From Isurus oxyrinchus (lineage: Eukaryota), in NCBI GenBank assembly GCA_026770705.1, contig JANJGN010000004.1, positions 173,166,001 to 173,230,000 of the forward strand: a stretch of DNA of 64,000 nt, in the 5' to 3' direction. Each line of letters opens with the position of its first letter. The first letter of the stretch is position 1. Position numbers and translations under genes: made by a program. Below are positions 98 to 61,618 of this stretch, one piece after another. Below the pieces are notes generated by a model. It was not told the DNA's origin, did not search any database, and worked only from the letters and a program-made list of their open reading frames with translations.

Positions 98-497
98 GTG
101 GGGAAATGGTTATGTAGTGGTAATGTTGCTGGGCGAGCAATCTAGAGGCCCAGGCTAATCCCCTGGGGACATGGGTTTGAATCCCACAAAGGCAGTTGGT
201 GGAATATAAATCCAATCAATTTATCTGGAATATCAAGCTAGTTGATGACCATGACAATTATCAGTGATTGTTGTAAAAACCTTTCTGATTCACTCATGTC
301 CTTTAGGGAAGGAAACCTGCCATCCCTTACCTGGTCTGGCCTACATGTTACCGACAGACCCTCAACAATGTGGTTGACTCTTAACTGCTCTCTGAAATGA
401 CCTAGCAAGCCACTCAGTTCAGGGGCAATTAAGGATGAGCAACAAATGCCGGACTTGACAGAGATGCCCAAATGCCATGAAAGAATAAAGAAAATAA
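98..497 (+). mobile_element. tRNA-headed SINE (family sharing 5' and 3' ends with the LINE at 21350-24575), long-body variant
   Basis: A-box-like TTATGTAGTGG and B-box GGTTTGAATCC; body ATGTCCTTTAGGGAAGGAAACCTGCC...CTAGCAAGCCACTCAGTT; tail GGGCAATTAAGGATGAGCAACAAATGC... ending A-rich. Confidence 0.85.
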
Positions 498-2619
498 ATG
501 TGCTTCTTGCAAATAAATCTTACTTTAATTCTGTCATGCTTTTGGGATTGTCTCACTGTCAACAATTAACATTGAAACCTGCTCTGTCAAACTGCCATGA
601 TCAGAGGTTTTAATGCCAATTTATGAAGTAAACAACAACCTGCCCTATTCTATTTGCAGGGCTTCCACCACTCGTGGAATACTAGTGTTCTCCCAGTCTC
701 CTCTCTTAGCTTCCCATGCCTGGATCTTCGCCGTCTCTGGCCTCATTCCCTTTACCTGCCCCCCGACTCCCCCACATGGCATAAGCAAAACTGTTATGAA
801 GAACAGAATGAGGACAATATATTTATAGTTATATTTATGTTTATAATTAAAAAACACAAGTGTAATGCATCCCTGTGACTTTATAAAATTCATGATTTAA
901 TGCATCAAATGTATGAAAGTCGAAGTTAGAAAAGTTGCTTGCTTCTGACCTGGAGTTAGACATTTATAAGCACCTTCCAATTGCAAACTTCTCTAATTAA
1001 CAGCTGAACCGCAGGCTTTGATTATTTTGTAAATCCACCAAATCTCAATGCAAATGCTTAGAGAGCAGACACAAAATTGGAATTGGTAATATCTGTTGGT
1101 TGAGCGCAATGAGTGCCATTTAGAGGCCAAAATGGTGTCTGATGCTCTCACACGTGGACTTCTGCCATGACTCGTGCTGGATATGATCTTATTAAAAGAC
1201 AAATGGGGGCATCCTTTCCCCACATATGAAACAAGCTGTATTTAATTTGCATATGCAAATAAGGGACTAACACCTATCTATAGTCCCTGTTGCACTTTTG
1301 GGTTGGCCTGAGGCAGTCAGTACCAGTGCTGACTGCCTCCTGGAATATCAACGATAAACATCACATAGCTGAAAAGTTACTCTAATCAACAGACCTCCTG
1401 CTCTGAACACCCTCTTGACTCCGACCCCCAAGACACCTTCTCCACCAATATCCATCTGACCCCGGCTCCATCTCCAAGCCCCTTCACACTACTGACACAC
1501 TCATGAGGCCTGCGATCATTGTACCAATCCCTTACAGCATTCCCACTCCTGCAACAGTATTCCTGAGGACTATAAGCTTCTGACCTGATCTACCATGAAT
1601 CCTGATCATAAACTTTGAAGAACATCCATTCCTTTTCCACGCCATTACGATCAACCCAATCACGTTCCTAGATATTAGAGCACTAACATGTGTGTGCATT
1701 GCAGCACTATCCCTCATAAGATGAAGTCCAAGGGCCAAAACCTAGAGCTTCTCAAACATATCCATTTAAAGTGCAGTTGTTACTCTGTGTCAGTAGGTTG
1801 CCAAAAAACAGGTCTCCTCAAATTTTTAAGCCCAGGGAGCCCTCCTATCCCACTTTCTACACTTTTACATGTTTGGCTATTGGGAAAAGACCTATCCACT
1901 CCCGTATGCAGGCATAAACATAGAGCTCTCCGCTGGTTGCTGCTCATTTATTCCAGCAAATGAGGGTCAGGTGGCAGGTTGGCAATGTAAATATTTTAAT
2001 GAGGTTGACAACCTGTGCTTTAAATTGCTTTGGCTAAATTTTCCAGGCCTTGTAAAATTGTGCAGCTGAAGGGAGATGAGGGCAGCTTTGGCACTTGTTT
2101 TTTGCCAGGAGTAGCAGGGCTATTTCCCCTGTCCCAACTTCCCCAGCATCAGACACTCACCCCATCTCCCCAGGATCACATTCCACCCTGGGTAGTGGAA
2201 TGGGCCTAGCTGATCCTGCAGACTGCTCTTGAGTTCTCCCTGCTCAATTGGACAGGAAGCCTGTCAAGTACAAAAAGCAGATGATGTGGAGTTAAAACTC
2301 ACACAGTCTACATAACATACCCTAATAATATTTAGACCCAGAGTCCAAAACTGAAATATAAACCAGGAATTGTATATTAGATTTGAATCATGCATAGCAA
2401 GCAAAATATTTATAGGGAGAGGAATCTAGGATTAAGAGGGAGAGGAATGAAAAATACAAACAAAGTGAAAAAAAATGTAGATTTTAAAACATTGAACACT
2501 AATGAAACTCTAAAGGAATGAATCTCCACACTTATTAAATTAAATTCTCAGGGCCAGAGAGGTAGTTTGGCAGTAAATATGACACATTACACCATGACAA
2601 ATTTACTTACTCCTCTGCT

Positions 2620-3374
2620 CTAAAGTATAAAATAGAACCCACAACTTGAGAGGGAGAGCTGCTTGAATTTAACAAGGTTGAAGTCAGGCCAGAAGAGTTA
2701 AAAGAGGTCCAGGAAAGATCAGTAGAATTTAAAACAGCCCAGCAGAATATCCCAAAATGTGGGCTGGCAGATACAGCCATCCCAGAATTAACCAGAAACA
2801 GAGAAGGCCCAGAACAAGAAAAGAGATAATGAAGGAGATGCCCCACTTAGACAAAGAGCCTGAGGGAAGGCTACTCATTAAAACAGGAAAGATAAATGTT
2901 AAAGAATTGCCTATAGTATAGCTGATAGATACCTTCTCTGCAAATTTAAATCGGGACAAAAGGGATTTCCCAAGCAGGCATACAGATAGGGAGTGAGATT
3001 CCTCACCGACCGAAAGGCCACTAGAGAGCACAGCCTGCTTGAGTTCTGAAATCAAAATCTCTGCCTAAGCCTGATCTCCAACAGCTAAAAATTCAAAACT
3101 CTAACCCTCTTTACCCACTAAAGACAGATTTTGGCTCCAGGTCAACCTTAGCACTATACACATGACAGGAAAGGAAAATATCTTTGCTGACACCATATCC
3201 CAGGTTTAAAATACAGATATGCAGCAGGGAACTGACATATCCTCTGCTAGCTGTGTGTTTGACTTTTCAGTATGAAGGAGAGAATGATTGCAGAGCTCTC
3301 TATTTCCTAATTTTCTTTCACAAGACTTCATGAAAAAAAAAGAATTAATTTTTTTTCTCTGAGAGCGGGCGGAC
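2620..3374 (+). mobile_element. Internal remnant of a Gypsy-type LTR retroelement (RNase H C-terminus followed by a PPT-like tract)
   Basis: 3126-3209 translates RFWLQVNLSTIHMTGKENIFADTISQV*, matching the Ty3/Gypsy RNase H end motif (H..GK.N..AD.LS). Purine-rich GAGAGCGGGCGGAC lies just before the TGTT that starts the LTR. The 5' boundary is uncertain. Confidence 0.6.
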
Positions 3375-5413: not shown

Positions 5414-5779
5414 TTGCCAAGGTATGACCTATCCACAAAAAAGCATGGCAAATCCAATCTGGCCAATTACTATCCCATCAGTCTACTCTCAATCATGAGT
5501 AAAGTGATGGAAGGTGTTAATTACAATACTATCAAGTGGCACTTACGCAATAATAACCTGCTCACCGATGCTCAGTTTAGCTTCTGCCAGGGCCACTCAG
5601 CTCCTGACCTCATTACAGCCTTTGTCTGAACATGGTCAAAAGAGCTAAATTCAGAAGGTGAATTGAGAGTGATTGCCCTTGAATTCAAGATTTGACCGAA
5701 TGTGGCATCAAGGAGCCTAACTGACATGAAGACAATAGGAATCAGGCAGAAAACTCTGCATTTGTTGGAGTCACACCTA
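5414..5779 (+). mobile_element. Fragment of the tRNA-headed LINE family (RT N-terminal part); continues at 9243
   Basis: KSNLANYYPISLLSIMSKVMEG...LTDAQFSFCQGHSAPDLITA, homologous to 22531-22854. It breaks at GAGTCACACCTA and resumes at CAAAGGAAG. Confidence 0.85.
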
Positions 5780-8700
5780 TGTTATGGTCAGGAGGGAGTT
5801 TAATTTAAACAGCCCTGATTTCTCCTCTCACCACAACATCATAGAATTCTTCCTTAGGTTGGGAAGTGAAGTAGTCCAATTCAAATCTAGGGTCCTAAAG
5901 GACAGTGGTAATGTAAAGGGCAGAGAGGGCAAAAGTTCTTCGATTGTGCTCAGGAAAATTTTCTACAGCATTATCTGTCCAATCCAACAAAACAATATGC
6001 ACTCCTGGACCTGGTTCTTGGAAATGAGGTGGTTCCAAGTAGACCAAAGGTTAGTGGGGGAACATTTAGGAGACAGTGATCATTGTATTATATGCTTTAG
6101 GATGATGATAGAAAAGGACTATAGACAATCCAGAATAAGGATACTGAACTGGATGAGAGCCAAATTTGAGGGGGAAAGAATGGAGCTGGGTCAGATAGAC
6201 GGGAATGAAAGATTGGTGGGAAAAGCTGTAGCTGAGCAATGGGCTACCTTCAAAAAAGAATTGATTCTGGCACAGTCAAGGTATATTCCATCGAAAGGGA
6301 AAGGTAGGGCAAATAAATCCATAGTTCCCTAGATAAAAAAGAAGATAAAAATTTAGATAAAGAAGAAAAAGTGTGCTTATGACAAGTGTCAGTTAGAAAA
6401 TACAATGAGAATCAAGAGGAATACAGAAGGTTGAAAGTGGAGGTGAAAAAGCATATTAGAGAAGCAAGGAGGGATTATGAGAAAAGACTGGCAGCCAACA
6501 TAGAGGGGAATCTCAAAGTCTCCTATAGGCATATAAAAAGTAAAAAGATGGTAAAAGGAGGAGTATGGCTGAGTAGAGACCTAAAAGGGAATTTACACAT
6601 GGATGAAGAGGCCATAGCAGAGGTATTAATATTTTGCATCCATCTTTACCTAAGAGGTAGATGCTACCCAGACCATGGTGACAGATGAGGAGACTCTGTC
6701 AGTAGAAGGGTTCAAAATTGATAAGGAGGGAGTGTTGAATAGACCGTTGGTACTTAAATTTGACAAGGCACTGGGACCGGATGAGATGCATCCAAGGATA
6801 TTGAAGGAAGTGAGAATAGAAATTGCAAGGGTACTGGCCATAATTTTTCAGTCTTCCCTAAACTAAAGGGAGGTGCCAGAGGACTGGAGAATTGCAAACA
6901 TTACACCCTTGTTCAAAAAATGTTGTAAGGATAAGCCCAGCAATTATAGACCAGTCAGCTTAACTTCAGTGCTCGGCAAGATTCTAGAAACAATTATTCA
7001 GGATAGAATTAGTACTCACATGGTAAAATATGGGCTGATAAGGAAGGCACAGCATGGGTTTCTAAAGGGGAAATACTTGCTGGAGTTTTTTGAACAGGTA
7101 ACAGAAAAGGACAATGAGGGTAATGTTGTTGATATAATGTACATGGACTTTCAAAAGGCATTTGATACAGTTCCACACAACAAACGTGTGAGAAAAATTA
7201 TTGCTCATGGAATGAAAGGGACTGTAGCAACATGGATACAAAATTGGCTGCAAAATAGGAATCAGAGAGTAATGGTCAACGGATATTTTTCAGCTGGGGG
7301 ATGGTTTACACTGCAGTTTCCCAGGGGTCGGTATTGGAACACTTGCTTTTCCTGATATATATTAATGATCTAGATTTTGGTGTACAGGGGACAATTTCAA
7401 AGTTTGTGGATGATATGAAGCTTGAGAGTGTTGTGTGCTGTGAGGAGATAAGTGTAGAACTACTAAAGGACATAAACAAGTTGGTGGAGTGGGCAGATAG
7501 GTGGCAGATGAAGTTCAATGTGGAGAAGTGTGAGGTGATGCATTTTGCTAGGAAGAACATGGACAGACAATATAAAATAAGGGGTGAAATTTTGAAGGGA
7601 GTGCAGGAGTAGAAAGACCTGTGTATATATGTGCTTGGATCATTGAAGGAGGCAGGACAGGTGAAGACTGCAGTTAATAAAGCATATAGTATCCTCAGCT
7701 TTATTAATAGGGGCATAGAGTAGAAGAGCAAGGAGGTTATGCTGAATTAATATAAAACATTCATTAGACCTCAGCTGGAGTATTGTGTACAGTTCTGGGC
7801 GCCACATTATAGGAAGAATGTGAACAGATTGGAGAGAGTGCAGAAGATGTTTACAAGAATGGTTCCAGGATGAGAAACTTCAGCTTTGAGGATAGATTGG
7901 AGAGGTTGGGACTGTTCTCTTGCAGAGAAGAAGGCTAAGAGGAGATTTGATAGAGATGTTCAAGATCATGAGGGAGCTGCACAGAGTAGATAGGGAGAAG
8001 CTCTTCCTGCCTGTAAAAGGATCAAGAACGAACGACACAGATTTAAAGCAATTTACAAAAGTAGCAAATGTGATGTGAGAAAAAATCATTTTCACACAGC
8101 GAGTGGTTCATGTCTGGAATGCACTGCCTGGAAGAGTGGTGGAGGCATTCAAGAGGGCATTCAATCATTATTTGAATAGAAACAATGTGCAGGGGTGCAG
8201 GAAAAAGACAGGCAACGGCACTAGATCATAATGCTCATTTGGATAGCCAGTGCTGATGTAAAGGGCTGAATGGCCTCCCTCAGTGCCATTAAAATTCTGT
8301 GATTCTGTAGCCATTCAGTTTATCTCTACCCGCTCTGCTCCACTACCCATTAAGGCATCCTTTGGGGGGCTACTCATATGGAGCTGTAAAAGGCCAATTG
8401 GATTGTACACAATCTCCAGCACTAAGGGAGGGGGAGCATTGCTGTGTTACCATTGTACATTCATACAATAAAATAGAGAAAGAAGGAGGTACAGGGCAAA
8501 GACTAGAGAGAAAATAAGTAATGTTTCATGTGAGTCCAGAATCAAAAGTCCAATGGTGTATTCCTTCCTAGAGATCAGCAGACTGAACCTGACACTGGAT
8601 AATCCACCTTTCAAGTAGAGATGACTTCTACAATGAGATGGATATGTAGAGATGAATTAGACTTGTAAGCACTGGTACAGGAGTTCCATTGAAATCAGTG

Positions 8701-9240
8701 TGGATGGGGCCAGGCATTCATTTGGTCTGAGCCTTGTTCTGAGCTGCTTGCTAGAAGGAAGATGGCAATCTTCTTAATAGCTCCACAAGGCAGGTAACGT
8801 CCTCCCCCATCTGGAGGGGGTCATGTGACATAACTCCCACTTCTCCACTTTTGTTTGAAAAAGCAAGTATACTCCTTTGTCTGAATTCTCGAGATGGTTA
8901 ATGTTTCAATCATTAATAATTTCAGAAGAGATTTTGGGGTTCTTTGTCCAAACAAGCTTCCATCTCTGTTGGCCAGGCTTTGGCCTTAGGAATGTACATG
9001 GTCCTTGTACAATTCCCTTGGATTTGATCTCTGCAGTCACAGGGATCATTAGCGGCTCTATAAAGATAATGAGGTGGCAGCTGTTCTGAATGCCAGGAAG
9101 CTCATTTTGTTTGAACCATAGCCAGTCATGGTTTCAGTCATTTTAAAAATATTGTCCGGTTTTTAAGATTTTATAAATTAGCCATGCTGATACATATGTA
9201 ATAAAAATATGGAGTGAGGTCTTAGCCCACTGACAATTAA
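5780..9240 (-). mobile_element. LTR (family A), antisense, inserted in the LINE and itself interrupted by a CR1
   Basis: 5780-5833 is the reverse complement of the family A LTR end. GGGGTCATGTGAC (about 8818) and 9020-9060 match 4541 and 3625-3660 in reverse. The host LINE resumes right after. Confidence 0.6.
5890..8310 (+). mobile_element. CR1 LINE, 5'-truncated ORF2 (endonuclease C-terminus plus RT) with 3' UTR
   Basis: Frameshifted peptides HLGDSDH, KALGPDEMHPRILKE, PEDWRIANITPLFKK, NYRPVSLTS, YMDFQKAFD, SQGSVL...YINDLD, KFVDD; tail ATTCTGTGATTCTGT. Confidence 0.95.
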
Positions 9241-9242
9241 CA

Positions 9243-10160
9243 CAAAGGAAGTTGGTTGTGATTGTTGGAGGTCAATCATGTCAGCCCCAGGCCATTGTTG
9301 CAATAGTCCCTCAGTGTAATGTCCTAGGTCCAACCATCTTCAGCTACTTCACAGTTGACCTTCCCTTTGTTATAAGCCCAGAAGTGGGTTTGTTCGCTGA
9401 TGGTTGTACAATGTTCAGCACTGTTCACTGCTGTTCATACTGAAGGAGTCCATTTCCATGTACAAGACCCAGACAACATTCAGGCTTGGGCAGATAAGTG
9501 GCAAACAACATTCATGTCACACAAGTTCCAGGCAATGACGATCTCCAATAAGAGAGAATCTAATCAACTCCCCTTGACATTACTATCACTGAATATGCCA
9601 CCATCAAAATCTGGGGGCTTGCCATTGACCTGCAATGTATTTTGACCAGCCATATAAGTACTGTGGCTACAAGAGCTGGTTTAGAGGCTGGGAATTCTGT
9701 GGTAATTAACTGAAGTCTCTGATAACTCACCTCCTGACTTCCCATCACCTACAAGGCACAGGTCAGGAATGTGATGGAATACGCTCCACTTGCCTGGATG
9801 ACTGCAACTCAAGAAGCTTGGCATCATCCAGAATAAAGCAGCTTCCTTGATCGGCCCATCATCCACTACCTTAAACATTCCCTCCACTGATCACAGTGAC
9901 AATAATGGCTCATCAAGCTTCCTTTGGACAGCACCTTCCAAACCCGTGACCTCTACCACCTAAATGACAAGGGCAGCAGGGAACACCACGACTGCAAGTT
10001 TCCCTCCAAGCCAGACACCTGACTTGGACCTATATCTCTGGTGCTTCACTGTCACTGGGTCAAAATTTTGGAGGTCCCTTCCTAACAGTACTGTGGGTGC
10101 ACCTACACCAGATAGGCTGCAGCAGTTCAGGAAGGTAGCTCACCAACACCTTCTAAAGGC
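9243..10160 (+). mobile_element. Continuation of the tRNA-headed LINE fragment (RT core to near the 3' end)
   Basis: VVIVGGQ...VPQCNVLGPTIFS...FADGCTMFST, DNIQAWADKWQ, homologous to 54075-55278 and 21400-22400. Confidence 0.85.
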
Positions 10161-10280: not shown

Positions 10281-11906
10281 TTGCTTCTGAGTAAAATATT
10301 CCGATTGATTATTGTTAATTTTACAGAAATGTACACAATCATAGCTATGCTGTATCAAATTTATAGTTAAAGCAAACAATACATTTCTGGAATAGATCCA
10401 GGATTGCAAAAGCCATGTTGTGCTTATGTTTGAATTAGATATAAAATTATTGACTCCTAAATCATTAAAATGATTACAACCTCAGGGGAACGTGGGCACG
10501 TTAGTTGTGTTTTGATTTCCCTGTGCATGACTCTTAATTTGATTGTTAAACCCTTTCAGATTATGGCTCAGCTTCTCAATTAACATTTTACATTAGAGTC
10601 ATTGGACATTTTCGGGAGGTAAATATGTACTGAAAAGAACTCTTAGTATTCTGCCTGTCAAAACAATAATCCAATATCGCCACAATTTATATTGGAGAAC
10701 TTTGTCAAATTTGATTATGGGCATTTTGGAAATAATTTCAAGAAACACTGGATTGAGGCAAATTTCAAGATTAAAACAAATTAAATATTGTCATATTAAA
10801 TATATGGGCACTTCATACATATATATTGAAATGTTGATTGGTCAATTTTGCAAGATGGCAATGCAACTTTACAAGAGTTTTATAAGTTTTAAATTTTATT
10901 TTACTATATCTAAATACTATGAAATGTTATTAAAATTATTATGTTATGGAAATATTTTCAGTTTGTTCTTCTCACTGATGCCAAGATCAGAAAAAGAGAA
11001 TATGAAACAAGGGAAAGAGAAAACCAACTCGCAAACAACAAGGTTCCAGAAACAGCAATGAGATAAATTACCAGATAATTTGTTTTTGATGTTGATTGAG
11101 CAATAAATACTGGCCAGGTCACCAGGGGAATGATGAGTCATTGCTGAATCTTTTCTAAAGCCTTCTGAGAGTAGAATGCCAGAACTGAACATCATATTTT
11201 AGGTTTGACCAGCATTCTGAATAAGTTGTAATTGTTTCTCATGTTTACACTTTTACCACAAAGTGCAGTGCCCACTTTTTCTCCAGGTATTATTTAAGGA
11301 TTGCCAACCCATGGCTTATTGCACTGCAGGACAGGATGATGAGGCAGGTTCCAAGTCTACCTCAGCTGGAATGGAGACTGAGCTTCACGTTGTTGATGCT
11401 ATTTTGAACCATACACTTAACTTCTAGCCAACTGAGCGAACCAACCCCTCAGTGTCCCCATAGATTTCTTGATTTGTAAATAAACTTCTACTGAGTTGTG
11501 CACCTTGGCTACTGATCTGATTATTCCCTCCTCTCCTGCTACCCACCCAAGCTGTTCACAAGATCTTCTGCATTCAGATTGTACTGACATCTGCTATTCT
11601 TGCATTTGGAAGTGTGTGACCTCCCACATTATTGCACTTGCCATTGTTATACCCACATCCATAATCTAGTGCTGTCTTTCTGGAAATTGTCACCTTTATT
11701 TATGTTTTGGTTGGCTGTTTTTGGTGTAAAGATCAACAAGTAATATCCTTAAGGATGTCTGATTTACTAATAAGTAACAAATTTTGCAAATATGTCCTAC
11801 ATTTGTCACTGCCTCCCATTGGAGCTTCTTGTGTTTATGTTCACTTTCTGCCTTCTATTAATAAGTTAGTTTTAAGTCCAGAAGGGTATTTCTTTTTAAT
11901 TTCTCA

Positions 11907-14190
11907 GCAGAGGCTGAGCATCAACTCGCAGACACTTCCTCCTACCTCCCCCTGGACCATGACCCGACCACTGAACATCAAGCCATTGTTTCCAGGACTG
12001 TTACTGACCTCATTTCCTCTGGAGATCTGCTTTCCACAGCTTCCAACCTCATTGTCTGCCAACCTCGGACAGCCCGCTTCAACCTCCTACCCAAAATCCA
12101 CAAACAGGACTGTCCCAGTAGACTGATCGTGTCAGCCTGTTCCTGCCCCATAGAACTCATTTCTTGCTATCTTGACTCCATTCTCTCTCCCCTTGTCCAG
12201 TCTCTTCCCACCTACATTCGCGATTCCTCTGACACCTTACATCATATCAACAATTTCCAGTTCCCTGGCCCCAACAGGCTCCTCTTCACCATGGACATCC
12301 AATCCCTCTACACCTCCATCCCCCACCAGGCTGGTCTGAGGGCTCTCTGCTTCTTCCTTGAACAGAGGGCCGAACAATCCCCATCCACCACTACTCTCCT
12401 CCGTCTGGCTGAACTTGTTCTCTCACTGAGCAATTTCTCCTTAAACTCCTCTCAATTTCTCCAAATAAAAGGTATGGCTATGGGTACCCGCATGGGCCCC
12501 AGTTATGCCTGTCTCTTTATGAGGTATGTGGAACATTCCTTGTTCCAGTCCTACTCCGGCCCCCTCCCACAACTCTTTCTCCGGTACATGGATGATTATT
12601 TCGGTGCTGCTTCACGCTCTCGTCTGGAACTGGCAAAATTAATTAATTTTGCTTCAACTTTCCACCCCTCCATCATTTTCACATGGTCCATCTCTGACAC
12701 TTCCCTTCCCTTCCTTGATCTTTCTGTCTCAATTTCTGGTGATAGACTGTCCACCAATATCCATTACAAGCCTACCGACTCCCACAGCTACTTTGACTAC
12801 AGCTCCTCACATCCCGCTTCCTGTAAGGACTCCATCCCATTCTCTCAGTTCCTTCACCTCCGTCGCATCTGCTCTGATGATGCCACTTTCAAAAACAGTT
12901 CCTCTGACATGTCTTCTTCGTTAACCGAGATTTTCCACCCACAGTGGTTGACAGGGCCCTCAACCGTGTCCGGCCCATCTCCTGCGCATCCGCTCTCACA
13001 CTTCCCTGTCCCTCCCAGAACTATGATAGTGTCCATCTTGTCCTCACTTATCACCCCACCAGCCTCCGCATTCAAAGGACCATCCTCCGCCATTTCCGCC
13101 AACTCCAACATGATGCCACCACCAAACACATCTTCCCTTATTCCCTCCTGGTGGCATTCCACAGGGATTTTTCCCTCCGGGACATCTTGGTCCACTCCTC
13201 CATTACCACTTACACCTCAATCCCTTCCCAAGGCACCTTCCCATGCAACCACAGAAGGTGCAACACCTGCCCCTTTACTTCCCCTCTCCTCACTGTCCAA
13301 GGGCCCAAACACTCCTTTCAAGTGAAGCAGCATTTCACTTGCACTTCCCTCAATTTAGTCACCTGCATTCACTGCTCCCAATGCAGTTTCCTCTACATTG
13401 GAGAGACCAAACACAGACTGGGAACACCTTCGGTCTGTCCACAAGCATTAACCAGACCTCCCTGTCGCTTGCCATTTCAACACACCACCCTGCTCTCATG
13501 CCCACATGTCTGTCTTTGGCCTGCTGCAATGTTCCAGTGAAGCTCAATGCAAACTGGAAGAACAGCACCTCATCTTCCGATTAGGCACTTTACAGCCTTC
13601 CGGACTGAATATTGAATTCAGCAACTTTAGATCATGAACTCTCTCCTCCATCCCCTCCCCCTTTCCGACCCTCCTTTTTCCAATAATTTATAAATATTTT
13701 TCTTTTTCCACCTATTTCCATTATTTTTAAATGTATTTAAATCCATTGTTTTATCGCTACCTTTTAGCCTATTTTGATCCCTTCCCCCCACCCCACCCCC
13801 AGTTGGGCTATCTGTACCTTGCTCGTCCTGCTTTCTACCTTTAATATCACCTATTAGCACATTTATTAGCTTATATCACCACCGTCAACACCCATTTGTC
13901 TTTTTGTCTGTGACATCTTTTGGCGATCTCCACCTATCACTGGCCCTCTATCCAGCTCTACCTGTCCCACCAACACCACCCCCCCCCACCCCCGTCCCCA
14001 CCCCTGCCCCTTAAACCAGTTTATATTTCACCTCTTTTCTATTTTTCCTTAGTTCTATTGAAGAGTCATACGGACTGGAATCATTAACTGTATTCCTCTC
14101 CACAGATGCTGTCAGGCCTGCTTAGTTTTTCCAGCTATTTTTGTTTTTGATTTGGATTTCCAGTATCCGCAGTTTTTTGCTTTTGTTTCT
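11907..14190 (+). mobile_element. Penelope-like element (RT plus GIY-YIG endonuclease), 5'-truncated and frameshifted
   Basis: LLPKIHK (about 12085), GMAMGTRMGPSYACLFM, FLRYMDDYF, LPFLDLSV, HYKPTDSHSYFDYSSSHP; Cys linker CNHRRCNTC; GIY-YIG-like NLVTCIHCSQCSFLYIGET; 3' region with a degenerate hammerhead. Confidence 0.95.
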
Positions 14191-15049: not shown

Positions 15050-16160
15050 TCCTACAGCCAGTGCTCCAACCTACCAGAAACATTTGGTTTGGTCATGAGG
15101 GGCTGACCCAGGGAGTCATCATTCCGGACCCCATGAAGTCTCTTGGCATCAGGTCAAATAGAAACACGGGCAAGGGAACCTCCTGCTCATTATCAGCTAC
15201 TGTCAATCTTCAGCTAACGAATCAGTGCTGCTTCATGTTGAACATCACTTGGAAGAAGCACTGAGTGCAGCAAAGGCATAGAATCTGGGTCCAGGACTTC
15301 AATGCCCATCACTAACGGGTGCCTCAGTAGCACCACTAATGACTGAGGTGTCTGACTCTTGAAGGGCATATTTGCCAGACTGGGCCTGCAGCAAGTGATG
15401 AGAGAACCAACAAGAGGGAAAACCCTACTCGACCTTATCCTCATCAATCCACCTGCTGTAAATGCATCTTTCCATGACAGAATTGGTAGAAGTGACCACA
15501 CAGTGGAGACCAAGTCCCGTCTTCACACTGAGGTCAGGTGGTGTGCCACTACCACTGTGCCAAATAGAATAGATTCAGAATAGCTTTAGCAGTTCATGAG
15601 GTGCTGTGGGCCATCAGCAGCAGAATGGATTTCAAATCTGTTAGCTCTCATATCTCTCAGTCTATCATTACCATCAGGCCAGAAAACCAACTTGGCTCAA
15701 TGAAGACTATGGCAGAGCATGCCAGGTATACCTAATAATGGAACGTGAGCCTAGTTACGCTACAACACAGGGCTACATGCATAAACAGCCTAACAGCACT
15801 GTGGGTGTATCTACACCACATGGATTGCAGTGGTTCAAGAAGGCAGCTCTCCACCACCTTCTCAATGGCAACTAGGGATGGGCAATAAATGCTGGCCCAG
15901 CCAGTGAAGCCCACATCCCATGAATTATTTTTAAAAAACAGAGGAAACAACATGCTATAGAGCTAAGCAATGCCACAACCAATGAATCAGATCCACATTC
16001 TGCAGTCCAGGCATGAATGGTGGTGGACAATTAAGTAACCAACTAGAGGAGAAGACTCAAGTAACATTCTCACCTTCAATGATGGGGGAGCCCAGTATAT
16101 CAGTGCAAAAGACAAGGCTGAAACATTTGCAACTACCTTCAGCTAGAAGTGTCGAGGGGC
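15050..16160 (+). mobile_element. Old fragment of the tRNA-headed LINE (APE region and linker) with a nested 3' tail of the same family at about 15790-15937
   Basis: LGLQQVMREPTRGKTLLDLIL...GRSDH (APE C-terminal motif); the insert carries the GGCAACTAGGGATGGGCAATAAATGCTGGCCCAGCC tail. Confidence 0.8.
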
Positions 16161-17349: not shown

Positions 17350-17720
17350 GAGGAGGTGGTGGCCCAGTGGTATTGTCACTGGACTAGTATTCCTAAGACC
17401 CAGGGTAATTCTCTGGGGACCTGGGTTCAAACCCCACCACGGCAGATGGTAAAATTTCAAATCAATAAAAATCAGGAATTAAAAATCTGGTGATGACCAT
17501 GAACCATTGCCAATTGTTGTAAAAAACCCATCTGGTTCACTAACATCCCTTGAGGGAAGGACCTCTGCTGCCCCTACGTGGTCTGACCCACATGTGACTC
17601 CAAGCCCACAGCAATGTGGTGGGCTCTTAAATGCCCTCCGAACAGGGCAATTAGGGATAGGCAATAAACGCTGGCCTAGCCAGTGACGCCCACATCCCAT
17701 GAACAAATTTAAAAAAAAAC
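17350..17720 (+). mobile_element. tRNA-headed SINE (short-body variant) inserted in Tx1 unit 1
   Basis: A-box TGGCCCAGTGG, B-box GGTTCAAACCC, shared body and tail, ends in poly-A. Confidence 0.9.
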
Positions 17721-19388: not shown

Positions 19389-19650
19389 TTTTTTTTCTCT
19401 ACTTGCTCATGGGATATGGGCATTGCTGGCTAGACCAGCATTTATTGCCCATCCTTAATTGCCCTTGTTTAGAAGGCAGTTAAGAGTCAGCCACATTGCT
19501 GTGGGTCTGGAGTCACATGTTGGTCAGACCAGGTAGGGACAGCAGATTTCCTTCCCTAAAGGACATTAGTGAACCAGATGGGTTTTTACGACAATCAGCA
19601 ATGGTTTTATGGTCATCATTAGATTTCTTAATTCCAGATTTTTTTCTTTT
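19389..19650 (-). mobile_element. 5'-truncated tRNA-SINE copy inserted in Tx1 unit 3
   Basis: Reverse complement of the SINE body and tail (CATTTATTGCCCATCCTTAATTGCCCTTG...GAACCAGATGGGTTTTTACGAC). Confidence 0.85.
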
Positions 19651-21349: not shown

Positions 21350-24300
21350 GAGTCTTTTTTCATTCATTCAGGGGTTGTGGGCTTCACTGGCTGGGCCAGC
21401 ATTTATTGCAGCTTCTCTAGTTGCCCTTGTGAAGCTGGTGGTGAGCTGCCTTCTAGAACCTCTGCAGTCCATGTGGTGCGGTACATCCACAGTTTTGTTA
21501 GGAACGGAGTTCCAGGGTTTTGACCCGGCGACAGTGAAGGAACGGCGATATATTTCCAAGTCAGGATGGTGAGTGACTTGGAAGGAAACTTCCAGGTGGT
21601 GGTGCTCCCATCAATCTGCTGCCCTTGTCCTTCTAGGTGGCAGAGTTTGCAGGTTTGGAAGAGGCTGTTGAAGGAGCTTTGGTGAATTCTCGCAGTGCAT
21701 CTTGTAGATGGTATACATGCTACCACTGTGTGTTGGTGGTGGAAGGAGTGAATGTTTCTGGATGTGGTGCCAGTCAAGTGGGCTGCTTCATCCTGGACAG
21801 TGTCAAGTTTCTTGATTGTTGTGGGAACTGCCCTCTTCCAAACAAGTGGGGAGTATTCCATCACACTCCTGATTTGTGCCTTAGAGATGGTGGACGGGAT
21901 TTGGGAGTCAGGAAGTGAATTACTTGTCTCATGATTCCTGGCCTCTGACCTGCTCTTGTAGCCACAGAATTTATATGGCTGGTTCAGTTCAATTTCTGGT
22001 CAACGGTAACCACCAGGATGTTGATAGTGGGGGATTCAGTGATCGTAGTGCCATTGAACGTCAAGGGGCGATGTTTGGATTCTCTCTTGTTGGAGATGGT
22101 CATTGCCTGACACTTGTGTGGCATGAATATTATTTGCCATTTGCCAGCATAAGCCTGGATATTGTCCAGGTCTTGTTGCATTTGGACATAGACTGCTTCA
22201 GTATATGAGGAATCACAAATGGTGCTGAACATTGTGCAATCATCAGTGAACATCCCCAGTTCTGACCTTATGATGGAAGGAAGGTTACTGATGAAGCAGC
22301 TGAAGGTTGGGCTGAGGACACTACGCTGAGGAACTACTGCAGTGATGTCCTTGAGCTGAGGTGACTAACCTCCAACAACCACAACCATCTCCCTTTGTGC
22401 TAGGCATGACTCCAACCAGCAGAGAGCTTTCCCCCGGGATTTCCATTGACTCCAGTCTTGCGAGGGCTCCTTGTTACCACACTCGGTCAAATGCTGCCTT
22501 GATGTCAAGGGCAGTCACTCTCACCTCTTCTCAGGAGTTCAGCTCTTTTCTCCATGTTTGAACCAGGGCAGTAATGAGGTCAGGAGTTAGGTGAACCTGG
22601 CGGAATCCAAGTTGAGCATCAGTGAGCTGGTTATTGCTAAACAAGTGCTGCTTGATAGCACTATTGATGACCCCTTCCATTACTTTACTGATGATCAAGA
22701 GTAGGCTGATGGGGTGGTTTTTCAACAGGTTGGATTTGTCCTGTTTCTGTGTACAGGATATATCTGGGCAATTTTCCACATTGCCAGGGAGATGCCAGTG
22801 TTGTAACTGTACTGGAACAGCTTGGCGAGAGGTGCGGCAAGTTTTGGAGCACAAGTCTTCAGTATTATTGCCGTAATATTGTCAGGGTCCAAAGCCTTTG
22901 CAGTTTCCAGTGCCTTCAGCAGTTTCTTGATAGCAGGTTGGGTGAATAGAATTGCCTGAAGACTGGCATCTGTGATGCTGGGGACCTCGGGAGGAGGCCA
23001 AGATGTATCATCCACTCGGCACATCTGGCTGAAGATTGTTGCAAATGCTTCAGCCTTATCTTTTGCACTGAGGTGGTGGGCTCCTCCATCATTGAGGATG
23101 GGGATATTTTTGGAGCCTTCTCCTCCTCTAGTGAGTTGTTAAATTGTCCATCACCATTTACAACTGGATGTGGCAGGACTGCAGAGCTTAGCTCTGATCC
23201 GTTGCTTGTGGAATCGCTTAGTTCTGCCCATCACTTGCTGCTTATGCTGTTTGGCGTGCAAGTAGACCGGTGTTATAGCTTCACCAGGTTGACACCTCAT
23301 TTGTAGGTATGCCTGGTGCTGCTCCTGGCATGCCCTCCTGCACTCTTCATTGAACCAGAGTTAATCCCCTGGCTTGATGGTAATGGTAGAGTGAGGGATA
23401 TGCTAGGCCATGAGGTTACAGATTGTGTTTGAATACAATTCTGCTGCTGACCCACCGAGCCTCATGGATGCCTAGTCTTGAGTTGCTAGATCTGTTCAAA
23501 ATCTATCCCATTTAGCACAGTGGTAATGCCACACAACACAATGGAGGGTGTCCTCCCATGGAAGGCAGGACTTCATCTCCACAACAACTGTGCAGCGGTC
23601 ACTCCTGATGCATCTGCGGCAGGCAGGTTGGTGAGGATGAGTTCAATTATTGTTTTCTCTCTTATTGGTTCCCTCACCACCTGCCACAGACCCAGTCTAA
23701 CAGCTATGTCATTTAGGACTGGACCAGCTCAGTCAGCAGTGGTGCTACTGAGCCACTTTTGGTGATGGGCATTGACGTTTCCCACCCAGAGTCCATTCTG
23801 CACCCTTGCCCCCCTCAGTGCTTCCTCTAAGTGGTGTTCAACATGGAAGGGCACTGATTCATCAGCTGAGGGAGGAGGGTATATGGTAATCAGCAGCAGT
23901 TTTTCTTGCCCATGTTTGACCCCATGAGACTTCATGGGGTCTGGAGTTGATGTTGAGGACTTCCAGGGGAACTCCCTCCCGACTGTACACTACTAAGCTG
24001 CCACTTCTGCTGGTGGGACAGGACATAACCAGGGATGGTGATGGCAGTGTTTGGGACATTATCTGTAGGGTATGATTCCATGAGGATGACTATGTCAGGC
24101 TTTTGCTTGACCAGTCTGTGAGACAGCTCTCTCAATTTTGGCACTAGCCCCCGGATGTTAGTAACGAGGACTTTGAAAGTCAATAGAGTTGCATTGTCGT
24201 TTCTGGTGCCTAGCTCAATGCCAGGTGGTCCGTCTTGTTTCATTCTATTTTTTCTGACGTTGTAGCGGTTTGTTACAACTGAGTGGCTTGCTAGGCCGTT

Positions 24301-24575
24301 TCAGAGTTAATCACATTGCTGCGGATCTGGAGTCACATGTAGGCCAGACCAGGTAAGGACGACAGATTTCCTCCCCTAAAGGGCATTAGTGAACCAGATG
24401 GGTTTTTACAACAATTGAAAATGGTTCCATGATCATTATTAGATTTTTAATTGCAGATTTTTATTGAATTTAAATTCCACAATCTGCCATTGTGGGATTC
24501 GAACCTGGGTCCCCAGAGCATTACCCTGGGTCTCAGAATTACTAATCCAGTGACAATATCACTACATCATCGCTT
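21350..24575 (-). mobile_element. Near full-length single-ORF APE-RT LINE (CR1/L2 group) with a tRNA-derived 5' head; decayed by frameshifts
   Basis: ATG at 24243: MKQDGPPG...VLVTNIRGLVPKL...KPDIVILMES (APE). Then CAPKLAAPLAKLFQYSY, PISLLLIISKVMEG, MFTDDCTMF, MEYSPLVW, and the 3' tail CAATAAATGCTGGCCCAGCC...TGAATGAATGAAAAAA. B-box GGTTCGAATCC at 24495-24505. Confidence 0.9.
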
Positions 24576-24829
24576 CAACATGCGACATACACTTTTACAT
24601 GCATGTTGTCCTCTGGAGCTTTCCATCGATAATGATGTTAGAGGCTCCAGTGTTCTTCCTATCACAAGGCTGACCTGAAATCTCTTCTGCTCTTAGTGTC
24701 TGACATTGGCAGGTGTTGAAAGGATTTGCAGATTTATGCTCAACCTGTTAGGCCATGTTATGAATGCACCTTCCTTGGTCATCGAGTCCTGGGGTTGGAC
24801 TCAAACTCAGAGCTTCTGGCTCAGAGGCT

Positions 24830-49110: not shown

Positions 49111-49596
49111 TATTTAAAGTCTTGCAGGACTTAGTACACGTTAGAATGTGGGCAGTAAAGTTTTGCAGTTCTTTGTTAGATAATAGGAATTTCCGAAGAA
49201 TAAAAGTGTTGCACTCACTTACAATCTCACTTTTAATGACAGCTTTACCTAGTGCAGAATAAAATCAGCGTAATACAATATAAAGGTCATTTCTGAGAGC
49301 CAGGGAGGTGGGATAATTTTATACTAAGATCATTTGGGGGAAGGAGGAAATGGACAGGCTCAAATTAGCTGCCCATGTTACACCCAGCCTGATTTTGTTT
49401 TCTATTGAGTTTAATACAAAGTCAAATCAGACAGGAGGTAAATTGGAATGTTAATCTAAGCCTGCCAACTTCCAGTCAGGCTGATGAGGTTAAAACCTAC
49501 TGGTGTAGGTTAGCAATCTGAACTTGTGGTAAGTTGCCATAACCCACAAAGGGACCATAGGCATTTCTCCCTGTTAGAGGGAGACAAGTCATTGAG

Positions 49597-49870
49597 GGAG
49601 GTGGTGGCACAGTGGTATTGTCACTGGACTAATAATCCAGAGAACCACGGTAATGCTCTAGGGACTTGTGTTTGAATCCCACCATTGCAGATAGTGAAAT
49701 TTGAATTCAATAAAAATATGGAACAAATCTGACAATGAAACCGTTGCCAATTGTCGTAAAAACCCATCTAGTTCATTAATGGCCTTTAGAGAAGAACATC
49801 TGCTGCCCTTACCTGGGCAATAAATGCTAGCCTAGCCAGCAATGCCCACATCCCATGAATTAATAAAAAA
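49597..49870 (+). mobile_element. tRNA-headed SINE, variant with a larger internal deletion
   Basis: A-box TGGCACAGTGG, B-box TGTTTGAATCC; the body joins the tail directly at CCCTTACCTGG|GCAATAAATGC. Confidence 0.85.
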
Positions 49871-50077
49871 ATATAGCTGGAGGGGTACCATTCTGTCCCA
49901 AGCATGGGGCAAGGCAAGAAGGCAGCTCACCCTGAACTACTTGTACAGGGATTGGCCATTTTCTAGCCATCTAAGCTAACTGACACACACATGAAAATCA
50001 GGGAAGAAGGGTTACTAACACCTGACTTCCGATATACAATAATTATTTCCACTTTTCAAGAAGGGTGATAAATCAAA

Positions 50078-54074: not shown

Positions 54075-55278
54075 TAATTTTTTTATTCATCAATGGGATA
54101 TGGGCGTCACTGGCTATACCAGCATTTATTGGCCATCACTAATTGCCCTGAGAAGGAGGTGGTGAGCTGTCCTCTTGAGCCCCTGCAGTCCATGTAGTGG
54201 AGGTACACTCACCGTGCTGTTAGGAGGAGAGTTCCAGGATTTTGACCCAGCAACAATGAAGGAACAATGATATAGTTCCAAGTCAGGATGGTGAAAGGCT
54301 TGGAGAGGAACATCCAGGTGGTGATATTCCCATCTCTCTGCTGCCCTTGCCCTTCTACATGGTAGCAGTCATGGGTTTGGAAGGTGCTGTCTAAGGAGGC
54401 TTGGTGAGTTCCTGCAGTGCATCTTGTAGATGGTACACACTTCTTTGGTGGTGGAGGGAGTGAACATTTGTGGATGGGGTGCCAAATCAAGCGGGCTGCT
54501 TTGCCCTGCATGGTGTCAAGCTTCTTGGTTGTTGCGGGAGCTGTGATCATCCAGGCAAATGGAAAGTATTCCATCACACTCCTGACTTTTGCTTTGTAGA
54601 TGGTGGACAAGCTTTGGGGAATCAGGAGGTAAATTACTTGCCACAGGATTCCTAGCCTCTGACCTGTTCTTGTAGCCACAGTACTCAAAGGGCTAGTCAA
54701 GTTCAGTTTCTGGTCAATGTATCCCCCAAGATGTTGATAGTGGGAGATTCAGCAATGGTAATGCCATTGAATGTCAAGGGGCGATGGTTAGATTCTCTCT
54801 TGTTGGAGATGGTCATTGCCTGGCACTTGTGTGTCGTGAATGTTACTTTCCACTTGTCAGCCCAGGCCTGGATATTGTCCAGGCCTTGCTGCATTTAGAC
54901 ATAGACTGCTTCAGTATCTGAGGAGTTGTGAATGGTGCTGAACATTGTGCAATCATCAGCAAATATCTCCACTTCTGACCTTATGATGGAAGGAAGGTCA
55001 TTGATGAAGCAGCTGAAGATGGTTGGGCCGAGGACACCACCCTGAGGAACTCCTGCAATGATATTCTGGAACTGAGATGCTGACCTCCAACAACCACAAC
55101 CATCTTCCTTTGTGCTAGGTATGACTCCAACCAGCGGAGAGTTTTCCCCTTGATTCCCATTGACTCTATCCTTGCTAGAGCTCCTTGATGCCACGCTAGG
55201 TGAAATGCTGCCTTGATGTCAAGGGCAATCACTCTCACCTCACCTCTGGAGTTCAGCTCTTTTCCCCATGTTTGAGCA
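54075..55278 (-). mobile_element. 5'-truncated copy of the tRNA-headed LINE family (RT to 3' tail)
   Basis: RVIALDIKAAF, AGVPQGGVLGPTIFSCFINDLP, IFADDCTMF, DNIQAWADKW, RSVMEYFP; shared tail. Confidence 0.92.
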
Positions 55279-57079: not shown

Positions 57080-58870
57080 ATAAGATCATAAGAAATAGAA
57101 GCAAGAGTAGGCTATTTGGTCCTTCAAGCCTGTTCCACCATTCAATAAGATGGTGACTGAACCAATTGTGGCCTTAACTTCACTTTCCTGCCTTTTCCCC
57201 ATAACCCTTGACTTCACTGTAGATCAAAAATCTGTTTAACTCAGCCTTAAGTATGTTCAATAACCCAGCCTCCATCTGTTGTGGGAAAGAGAATTCCAAA
57301 GACCAATGACCCTCTGAAAGAAGAAATTCCTCTTCGATGCCAACTCAAATTGCAGACCCCTTTCTTTTAAACTGTGTCCCCTAGTTCCAGATTACCCCAT
57401 GAAATGAAACATCCTCTCAGCATTTACCCTGTCAAGCCCCCTCAGAATTGTATATGTTTTACAGGAACATATGGAATAGGAGCAGGAGTAGGCCATTCAA
57501 CCCCATGAACATACTCCGCCATTCAACTAAATCATGACTGATCTTCTACCTCAATGCTATCTCCCCGCCATGTCCCTTTATCCTTTGATGCCTTTAATGT
57601 CTAAAAATCTGTCAACCTCTGTGCTGAACATACTCAATGACTGAGCCTCGACAGCCCTCTGAAGTAGAGAATTCCAAAGATTCACTACCCTTTGAGTGAA
57701 GAAATTCATCCTCATCTCATTCCTAAATGGCCTCTCCCTTATTCTGAACCGTGGTTCGAGAAACCACCATCCCCGGGAAACATGATTCCTTCTGTACTCT
57801 GTTGAGTGCCGCAAGAATTTTGTACATTTGAATGAGATCGCCTCTCATTCTTCTGAACTCAAGAGAATACAGGCCTAGTCTCCTCAATCTCTCCTCAAAG
57901 GACAATCCCAATGCCCCAGGAATCAGTCTGGTGAACCTTCAATGCACTTTCTCTATGGCAAGTAGATCCTTCCTTAGGTAAGGGGGCCAAAACAGTACAC
58001 AGTACTCAAAGTGCGGTCTCAGCAAGGCTCTATACACCTGCAGCAAAACATCTTTAGTCCTGCACTCAAATCCTCTTGCAATAAAAGCCAACATACCATT
58101 TGCTAATTGCTTTCTGCACCTGCATGTTAGTTTTCAGTGACTCTTGAACAAATACACCCAGGTCCCTTTGGACTTCAGCATTTCCTATCTCTCACCATTT
58201 AAGGAATACACTGCATTTTCTGTTTTTCCTACCAGAGTGGATAACTTCAGATTTTTCCACATTATAATCCATCTGCCTTGTTCTTGCCCACTCACTTAGC
58301 CTGTCTAAATCCCCTGAAGGTTCTATGAATGCTCCTCGCAACTCAGGTTCCTACCCAGTTTCGTCAGCAGCAAATTTGGAAATATTACAATTTATCCCTA
58401 CATCTAAATCTTAGATTTTTTTAAAAAAAATGTTTGTGGGATGTGGGCGTTGCTAGCTAGGCCAACATTTATTGTCTATCCCTAATTGCCCTTGTTCAGA
58501 AGGCATTTTAAGAGTCAACCACATGTTGTGGGCCTGGAGTCACATGTAGCCCAGGTAAGGACAGCAGATTTTCTTCCCTAAGAAGGCATTAGTGAACCAG
58601 ATGGATTTTTCTGACAATTGGCAATGGTTTCATGATCATCATCAGACTTTTTTACTTCCAGATTTTTTTTGAATTCAAACTTCACCATCTGCTGCAGTGG
58701 GATTCAAACCTGGGTCCCCAGAGCATCACCCTGCATCTCTGGAATACCAGTCCAGTGATAACAATACCATTCCACTCTTTCCCCTTTAGATTGTGAATTG
58801 CTGGGGCCTAAGCACCGATCCTTGTAGGACCCTATTAGTCACAGCATGTCACCTTGAGAATAGCCCATTT
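57080..58870 (-). mobile_element. CR1 3' regions (two stacked tails plus RT C-terminus); further antisense CR1 sequence after 60200
   Basis: GLSFEERLRRLGLYSLEFRRMRGDLIQMYKIL; FFTQRVVNLWNSLLQRAVEA. Confidence 0.88.
58417..58775 (-). mobile_element. tRNA-headed SINE nested in CR1
   Basis: Full reverse complement of the head (GGGATTCAAACC), body and tail. Confidence 0.88.
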
Positions 58871-60200: not shown

Positions 60201-61196
60201 TATGTTTCCTGTCTGTTAACCATGTGCCCTAAGACAATAATAGGTTAATAAGAAGATCCCATTCTTCTAAACTCCAATGAGTATAGGCCTGATCTGCTCA
60301 ACCTTCCCTCATACAGTAACACCTTTATCCCAGGAATCAACCTAGTGAACCTTCTCTGAAGTGCTTCTAATGTAAGTATGTCCTTCCTTCAGGTAAGGAG
60401 ACCAAAGCTCTCCAGGTGCAGTCGCACTATTACCCTGTAAAGCTGTAGATCCCTTACACAGTTTGGAACTGATTCCACCACAAACACTTCTGACTTGAAG
60501 ACATCAAGTTCCACAGAAAAACAAGTAACTGCTGCCAGATCATGTAGTATGGTCCCTTGCTGCACATAAACTTTCATTCTACTTTGATAACTGACTCTAG
60601 AATGTTGCTAGAGCTTTGGATGGCCAGATGTCCATTTTAGGTCCACTTTAAGAACAAAATACTTCTAGGAATCTGAAGCGAATAGTGCTGGTTGACATGG
60701 TAACTTAATTTACTCCAGAGTTAAATCCAATCTCAAATCACTAGACAGGCAAGAACAGACTTTAGTTACCACATTCACTATACTCATCTTGAAGCCCTCT
60801 TATGGTACAGGCTGATCTGCAAAACTGTTATGTCACAACAAAAATAATTTTCCATACATAAGCCTGCATTTTCATGAAACAAAACATATGTCTGCATATT
60901 TTACATTGTTTGCTTTCTGGACCAGAGAGGTTGATTCGCATTGTATTAACAATCATCACATTATTAAAAAGGTACTTGCAGTCTTAGTTACGATGTGCTG
61001 AGTTCAGTGGTCAATTGGTGTGGAAATCCAGCAAGTTCTGGAAAAGTAGCAGGGAGGTTGATGGTGATATGCTGTTTTAGTGGGGCAAACACTGAAGAAG
61101 CGTAAATCGACCAGCAATTTAGAGGATGAGCAATTTATGGCATTTCCCTAAATCACTGAACTTGCTGGCTGATTTGCATATTAGTAGCTGTCACAA

Positions 61197-61555
61197 GGGA
61201 GGCAGTGACATCGTGGTATTGTCACTGGACTAGTAACCCAGAGACTCAGGGTAATGCATTGGGAGTCTGGGTTTGAATCCCACCGCAGCAGATGGTGGAA
61301 CTTGAATTCGATAAACATTTGGAATTAAAAGTCTGATGATGGCCTCAAAACCATTGCCAATTGTTGTAAAAATCCACCTGGTTCACAAATGTCCTTTAGG
61401 GAAGGAAATCTGCTGTCCTTACCTGGTCTGGCCTACATGTGACTCATGACTGACAGCAATAAGGTTGACTCATAAATTGCCCTCTGAACAATTAGGGATG
61501 GAGATAAAGGCTGACCTCGCTGGACCCATATCCCATGAACAAATAAAAAAAAAAT
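61197..61555 (+). mobile_element. tRNA-headed SINE (short-body variant)
   Basis: Head GGCAGTGACATCGTGGTATTG...GGTTTGAATCCC, shared body, tail and poly-A. Confidence 0.88.
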
Positions 61556-61618
61556 TAACATGCCCTTATTTTTCCACTAAGGAAAGCAGAAATGTTCTTG
61601 GAGCATATTGTCAACAGT

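Follow-up and report, generated by a model that had tools for sequence, protein, structure and literature searches.

In the textbook division, coding LINEs are Pol II products and non-coding SINEs Pol III products; where SINE bodies come from is, to our knowledge, an open question. A close precedent for the elements described here is Persaeus, a SIDE of the lepidopteran Zenon, which in the accessible part of its description (PMC6740152) is a bipartite 5' plus 3' deletion derivative with high copy number, several origins and variable 5' breakpoints, as the shark elements would be. Persaeus differs in having neither tRNA homology nor a Pol III promoter and in carrying an unrelated central region, whereas the shark elements have a direct join and a tRNA-like head (PMC6740152). 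The bipartite RTE/Vingi SINEs Bov-tA, SINE2-1_EC and CoeSINE4 also take body and tail from one LINE; however, according to the available sections of PMC5786205, their heads were added after the LINE deletion, while the autonomous shark LINE is already headed. A LINE holding a tRNA-like sequence, as here, is also known for RTE-1_DAn and related elements, which belong to the RTE clade and receive a one-sentence mention in the same source (PMC5786205). The origin by deletion is, by itself, closely preceded by Persaeus and by the bipartite RTE/Vingi elements; the original prediction had listed the RTE and Vingi derivatives and had missed Persaeus, which comes from Zenon itself (PMC6740152).

Elasmobranch Zenon (CR1 group) has been described as an element of about 3.3 kb with a single ORF, no ORF1 and a poly-A tail (PMC13343379), which is likewise the organization of the LINE reported below. 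In contrast to the present account, tRNA, Pol III and derived short elements are all absent from that description, the word tRNA returning 0 hits in the available text and supplement of the paper (PMC13343379). Small-RNA-derived Pol III promoters are likewise carried by the TRIMp3 retroelements Cassandra, Helenus and Ajax, which differ in being non-autonomous, non-coding LTR elements of at most about 1.3 kb (accessible part of PMC10886601). The shark SINEs HE1 (V-SINE) and SacSINE1 (DeuSINE) are likewise tRNA-derived and elasmobranch, and are set apart by the listing of their partners in a table of the source, HER1 and CR1-4_DR-like (PMC3747384, in part), the tail here being that of Zenon. A description of the present SINE was not found in the accessible parts of PMC7245038, PMC3531059, PMC3747384, PMC10468316 and 10.1101/443036. 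A wider search of the openly accessible literature listed no paper with a tRNA head or Pol III transcription of shark Zenon, or with a description of this SINE, and an entry in a repeat database such as Repbase or Dfam may exist. The elements reported here are abundant SINE-like families in which head, body and tail all lie inside one coding element, which would represent a one-step route to a SINE with its intermediates visible in the genome.

The window is a 64,000-nt stretch of the Isurus oxyrinchus genome (contig JANJGN010000004.1, positions 173,166,001 to 173,230,000). It contains six short elements sharing a tRNA-like head, a body of ~200 nt and a tail of ~75 nt (the one at 19389 being headless), five of which are designated below by their joins as J1 (the copy at 98) or J2 (17350, 19389, 58417 and 61197):

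100..497 (+): J1-type SINE-like element of the long-head lineage, with Zenon tail and A-rich end; its parts (+) are a decayed A box at ~107-120, a B box at 174-184, the body to 419 and the join at 419/420
17352..17717 (+): J2-type SINE-like element
19389..19643 (-): J2-type element, 5'-truncated, without tRNA head
58417..58769 (-): J2-type SINE-like element
61196..61560 (+): J2-type element with an extra small deletion at the join (a few more bases gone)
49595..49876 (+): head-and-tail element whose private join occurs once in the genome, with an ARAGORN tRNA call on its head at 49598-49689

By self-BLAST and alignment, window positions 114-419 match LINE-family positions 32-332 (83%, E 2e-83) and positions 419-496 match the family tail at 3225-3303 (78%, E 3e-11), the repeat at 98-497 being the 5' ~315 nt of the LINE joined to its last ~75 nt. 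This is the structure that had been predicted, with the SINE following the LINE from its 5' end to CACTCAGTT and then jumping to the last ~75 nt, and the LINE does run past CACTCAGTT into GTAAC where the SINE leaves it. Alignment also bears out the earlier joins claimed for 17350, 19389, 58417 and 61197, which lie about 22 nt before that of 98, as well as the join of 49597 between TTACCTGG and GCAATAAATG; the copy at 19389, which had been listed among the copies of the tRNA-SINE, is 5'-truncated and has no tRNA head.

By the definition of a SINE in the accessible part of PMC3531059 (<700 bp, high copy, non-coding), these elements qualify, with lengths of ~370-400 nt, thousands of exact junction matches and no coding capacity. 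They also have a tRNA-derived head, with A and B boxes visible in the alignments and ARAGORN hits, and share their 3' end with a partner LINE. Compared with a SIDE of the Persaeus type, their 5' and 3' ends are likewise both homologous to one LINE, and the head is tRNA-like, whereas such a SIDE has neither tRNA homology nor a Pol III promoter. The family-majority head is read as a tRNA by ARAGORN at relaxed score, and an Rfam scan of the window gave no tRNA or ribozyme hit. Convincing target-site duplications were absent from the 21 loci scanned (both ends being available for 7), and none was evident by eye at four SINEs of the window.

The LINE to which the short elements align is present in the window as a full-length copy, together with further fragments:

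21355..24576 (-): full-length dead Zenon LINE copy of 3.2 kb with a tRNA-like head; its short-head subfamily has lost 12 nt, and the copy stands ~9.5% from the family majority
24277..24576 (-): LINE 5' region common to the SINEs, with the A box at ~24569-24559, the B box at 24505-24495 and the body end CACTCAGTT at 24277
24241..24243 (-): conserved ATG, which family-wide opens a 35-codon frame out of frame with the endonuclease
21417..24174 (-): single ORF for APE endonuclease and reverse transcriptase, with stops and frameshifts in the window copy
21355..21429 (-): 3' tail of the LINE, made up of its final codons, the stop, the 3' UTR and the A-rich end and common to all SINE forms
54078..55275 (-): 5'-truncated Zenon copy (3' 1.2 kb), 90% to the family majority
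9238..10159 (+): older Zenon 3' fragment, 76%

An older Zenon middle fragment at 15123-16159 (+) is split by a young 150-nt Zenon 3' end at 15789-15941, a nested insertion that looks like a deletion join. Upstream of the full-length copy, a further repeat-like stretch at 24900-24600 (-), which may resemble a Deu-type SINE, abuts the LINE head.

The tRNA-headed LINE is a major family and not a rare chimera. A search with the head-to-ORF join returned 6,829 candidates, with 40 scored matches at 82-89% besides the query, and an exact 23-mer across this join has 2,466 copies in the genome (control, 0). Among 21 loci (20 fetched plus the window copy), 15 hold near-full-length LINE copies that are 6-11% from their own majority, and this majority has one 936-codon ORF starting ~400 nt from the 5' end and no ORF1. 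Pfam PF14529 and PF00078 were above cut-off in three of four natural fragments from sister copies, and the LINE tails end A-rich, as does the poly-A-tailed Zenon. The LINE (44 copies), J1 (18) and J2 (27) have a common 5' start, at a G-run that lies 10 nt ahead of the A box. In a reverse transcriptase tree with unnamed references, the window family groups with unlabelled single-ORF relatives (99/99), apart from the co-resident CR1-like fragment.

The first 400 nt of the published Zenon consensuses, as given in the available supplement of PMC13343379, begin with this head and body in all seven elasmobranch entries (CarCar, HypSab, RhiTyp, ScyCan and SquAca-1/2/3) and lack them in the three entries from hagfish and coelacanth; those of CarCar_Zenon-1 agree with the family majority by eye and motif search. 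Since these named consensuses have the same 5' sequence, the window LINE, judged by its sequence, is the published elasmobranch Zenon, and the head is common to sharks and a ray. No tRNA head was found before the ORFs of relatives in 79 metagenome loci (ARAGORN, BLAST and A/B-box pattern), the closest of which (34-37% identity) offer only 130-950 nt of 5' sequence, and no relatives of the LINE were found among viral contigs. One metagenome contig (L303:6405) shows an A/B-box-like pattern 3' of a distant LINE ORF.

The anticodon of the tRNA-like head is given by ARAGORN as Thr or Ile. The long variable arm of the head (24550-24510, -), which may resemble tRNA-Gln, has the appearance of a duplicated anticodon stem-loop, most clearly so in the dogfish (SquAca) consensus.

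Genome-wide, the J1 join has 1,694 exact 23-mer matches, and the J2 join 3,500 or 245, depending on which base stands at its diagnostic site. The join of 49597 has a single hit in 4.98 Gb, its own; because exact matching catches only a few percent of copies of such age, a tiny family may exist around it. At least three junctions had been claimed, of which J1 and J2 correspond to large families and the join of 49597 is a one-off. A third, small SINE-like family, absent from the window, has the join 335 to 3197 at three loci (L252, L253 and L405). An unselected sample of 80 stretches of 10 kb at round coordinates (800 kb) gave 27 hits, which by hand count resolve into 24 head-bearing elements: 10 J1, 4 J2, 3 running into the ORF, 4 with other head-and-tail joins and 3 without a readable outcome. 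All 21 readable heads end in the Zenon tail or enter the Zenon ORF (hand count), none being followed by a foreign tail; scaled from the 800 kb, the genome would hold very roughly 150,000 heads. In the own-genome loci (1.85 Mb, mostly selected), 93 J1/J2-like and 46 other joins were counted, some of which are nested insertions; among the others, nine connect 335-397 to 3141-3197, three of them identical. Microhomology at joins is slight (mean 1.1 versus 0.7 nt; at least 3 nt in 5/46).

The heads fall into two types that differ by two indels and about 20 sites, the long head occurring in J1 and the short head in J2 and most sampled LINEs. A midpoint-rooted head tree of 60 rows was built by random draw from 129 heads, with a ceiling of 16 per class and the 10 unclassified ones excluded. 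It has one branch (100/99) with 16 short-head LINEs, 16 J2 and 1 J1, outside which the five long-head LINEs stand with J1 in a star without internal structure, so that the SINEs do not form one group apart from the LINE. J2 also resembles the LINEs, and not J1, at diagnostic sites 25 and 38 of the tail. Of 36 long-head LINE-type copies found by pattern search, 34 were fetched; among them are old LINEs of full length as well as numerous private deletions. Median divergence is 14% for J1, 11.5% for J2 and 10.2% for the sampled LINEs. The long head is likely the ancestral form, because it is found in the dogfish autonomous consensus and the long-head copies are more diverged.

Here it is proposed, with a probability of roughly 0.7, that the SINE-like families are deletion products of the tRNA-headed Zenon LINE, the coding middle having likely been lost more than once, from successive LINE subfamilies. 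The deletions would arise during reverse transcription or integration, by a template jump, and a product keeping the A/B boxes and the ~75-nt tail could give Pol III transcripts for the Zenon protein to copy in trans; such a product would be a SIDE in its origin and act as a SINE. Two of the joins (J1 and J2) have grown into large families and the 335-to-3197 join into a small one, many others remaining single. The head and tail lineages, together with the common one-off head-and-tail deletions, favour such LINE-to-SINE derivation from successive LINE stages. Counting against it are the slight microhomology at the joins, some of which are nested insertions, the star-like J1/long-head part of the tree and the lack of target-site duplications bounding the elements. 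The tree of the 5' segment, proposed earlier as a check, does not show headed LINEs as rare recombinants inside SINE diversity: they are abundant, are found with the long head as well as with the short one, and represent the form of the published consensuses from five elasmobranch species (available part of PMC13343379). The claim that head, body and tail came from a single autonomous element stands insofar as all three occur in one autonomous family; the subfamily of the window copy is not the parent, lacking 12 nt that J1 and J2 keep. Of 30 unselected loci with a LINE-type join, 22 keep these 12 nt, 2 lack them and 6 are unclear (by eye). The 12-nt gap was also considered as a sign that the LINE took its head from a SINE, and was rejected, most LINE copies keeping the 12 nt.

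A single ancestral deletion (J1) could instead have founded the SINE lineage, with template switching later swapping heads and tails between SINEs and LINEs and J2 arising by a secondary deletion of ~22 nt in a J1-junction element, so that a SINE came from the headed LINE only once. J1 and J2 rejoin at one 3' base (3225/3226), J2 being J1 minus a ~22-nt block, and with this single 3' breakpoint one origin plus head swapping explains both too. This account also fits a J1-junction copy with a short head (L057), the finding of either body state among J1 copies, and an imperfect head-by-tail match to the sampled LINEs: the J2 combination of short head and TTTA tail is seen in 0/18 short-head LINEs with a readable tail (copy L395 fitting by eye) and the J1 tail state in only 1/8 long-head LINEs, in a sample skewed to copies resembling two queries, where transitional stages may be under-sampled. 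However, J2 sides with the LINEs against J1 in both head and tail, which requires two swaps, and new joins are frequent and at varied places. Head swapping between SINE and LINE RNAs is a live alternative; the single founding deletion as a whole we consider unlikely.

The reverse direction, in which an ordinary tRNA-SINE with a Zenon tail gave head and body to the Zenon LINE by template switching before the shark/ray split, J1 being its descendant and not a deletion product, appears quite improbable. The lepidopteran, hagfish and coelacanth Zenons are headless in the accessible parts of PMC6740152 and PMC13343379, which implies a single acquisition of the head, with a SINE as a plausible donor; there are 479 J1 copies with a long head to 36 of LINE type, and J1 is the most diverged class. 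Against this stand the lack of a foreign tail behind any readable head and a body unlike the Deu, Meta and UCON3 alignments by eye or motif search, four body motifs being absent from the available supplement of PMC7245038 (where gapped alignments could hide a weak match) and no likeness to the Deu and Meta alignments being visible by eye. Moreover, in the dogfish the long head, with the exact J1 5' boundary, is already part of the autonomous consensus (first 400 nt, PMC13343379), old long-head LINEs exist, at 70-80% from the young majority, and J2 and the one-off deletions would be left unexplained. Under derivation of the SINEs from the LINE, the LINE head may ultimately go back to a tRNA gene or to a SINE that is now extinct.

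More unusual is the parent LINE itself, which has A/B boxes, is free of TTTT and TVTTT over 3.3 kb and offers no in-frame AUG. On the sense strand of the 3,282-nt majority there are no runs of four or more T (4.6 expected, P 0.004) and 6 runs of three or more T (22.7 expected); the counts of A and C runs agree with expectation, and G runs show no depletion. The minimal Pol III terminators are TTTT and TVTTT (available part of PMC8466645), and together they number 0 in the majority against 8.2 expected. Genomic T runs were counted in 506 LINE segments (361 kb) and in control families, of which a Tx1-like set was left out as too shallow. The window carries members of these controls:

11865-13540 (+): long RT-like ORFs; their family, abundant with 400 segments in the own-genome loci, is by its motifs putatively Penelope-like
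5739-7355 and 47675-48766 (+): decayed canonical CR1-like fragments

The labels CR1-like and Penelope-like are putative, given by motifs and low similarity to Zenon. Runs of four T have a density of 0.67/kb in genomic LINE copies against 2.1 expected, compared with 4.7-4.8 in three CR1-like sets (2.9-3.5 expected) and an excess in the Penelope-like set (11.9 against 6.2). At fourfold sites, T before a T-starting codon occurs in 4/53 cases versus 54/267 otherwise (p 0.031), an avoidance not seen in the three CR1 controls, which are small sets. All 55 long ORFs of metagenome relatives (from the 79 loci) carry 2-57 T4 runs, four of them being below the shuffled expectation. The old-subfamily majority is also T4-free; with no more than 89 of 2,870 sites different, it provides no independent test.

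The ATG formerly taken as the start of the ORF is out of frame in the family, and in frame in the window copy only by a private deletion. It is conserved in 54/60 copies and out of frame with the endonuclease in 36/60, with a modal distance of 77 nt (30 copies) to the first endonuclease motif, the same spacing being found by our own count in the ray consensus (accessible part of PMC13343379). The 35-codon frame overlaps the endonuclease start (24243-24174, -, and 60 sister copies), both frames being open, and upstream that of the endonuclease continues without a stop across an Arg/Lys-rich stretch with no in-frame ATG. The Met in motif II alternates with ACG/ACA (19/16/15), as is typical of CpG decay. 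With the conserved ATG out of frame and no ATG in the endonuclease frame, we infer a non-AUG start or a -1 shift from an upstream AUG.

The parent LINE itself may tentatively be regarded as a Pol III transcript, an origin that would account for the missing T-run terminators. In a broader and equally tentative form, to which we give somewhat less than even odds, the Zenon of sharks and rays would be an autonomous coding LINE that owes its Pol III transcription to the capture of a tRNA promoter, has rid its 3.3 kb of Pol III terminators and is translated with no AUG in frame; each internal deletion keeping both ends would yield a complete SINE in one step, making the element a SINE factory since before the shark/ray divergence. 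If true, this would be a natural 3.3-kb Pol III mRNA requiring cap-independent translation. About an even chance is given to the LINE being an ordinary Pol II transcript, with the tRNA head as a passenger or a processing or folding element and the T runs lost through a C/A-rich, TT-poor composition. In agreement with this, the T4 absence is not significant under a synonymous shuffle (0 versus 2.1, P 0.10) or a Markov-1 null (0 versus 1.8, P 0.16), which is the case because the depletion of TT and Phe is already inside those nulls, and Phe makes up only 1.9% of the protein. According to the available part of PMC10886601, Pol II transcribes LINEs and Pol III transcribes SINEs, and elements made by Pol III do not exceed about 1.3 kb; an uncapped mRNA of 3.3 kb would need unusual translation. 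However, the depletion is specific to T and to the strand, is seen at synonymous sites, and is absent from the co-resident CR1 and Penelope-like families and the 55 relatives. The A/B boxes are recognisable in the consensuses of all five elasmobranch species (accessible part of PMC13343379), the LINE 5' end has the position expected for a Pol III start and coincides with that of the SINEs, and at least 10 upstream ATGs with none in frame argue against simple cap-scanning.

The element is contained in contigs of 24 RNA runs, and four runs aligned to the ORF part of one copy (L402) show its presence, with cover rising towards the 3' end. One of the four is labelled as a coral metagenome; horizontal transfer was considered for it and rejected, its variants being mostly the same as in the other three runs, among those listed, which is read as likely cross-contamination. 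In the published consensuses (available part of PMC13343379), the ray has a short-type head like three sharks and the dogfish a long type, so that the head types do not follow the host tree, with coexisting lineages or transfer as possible explanations.
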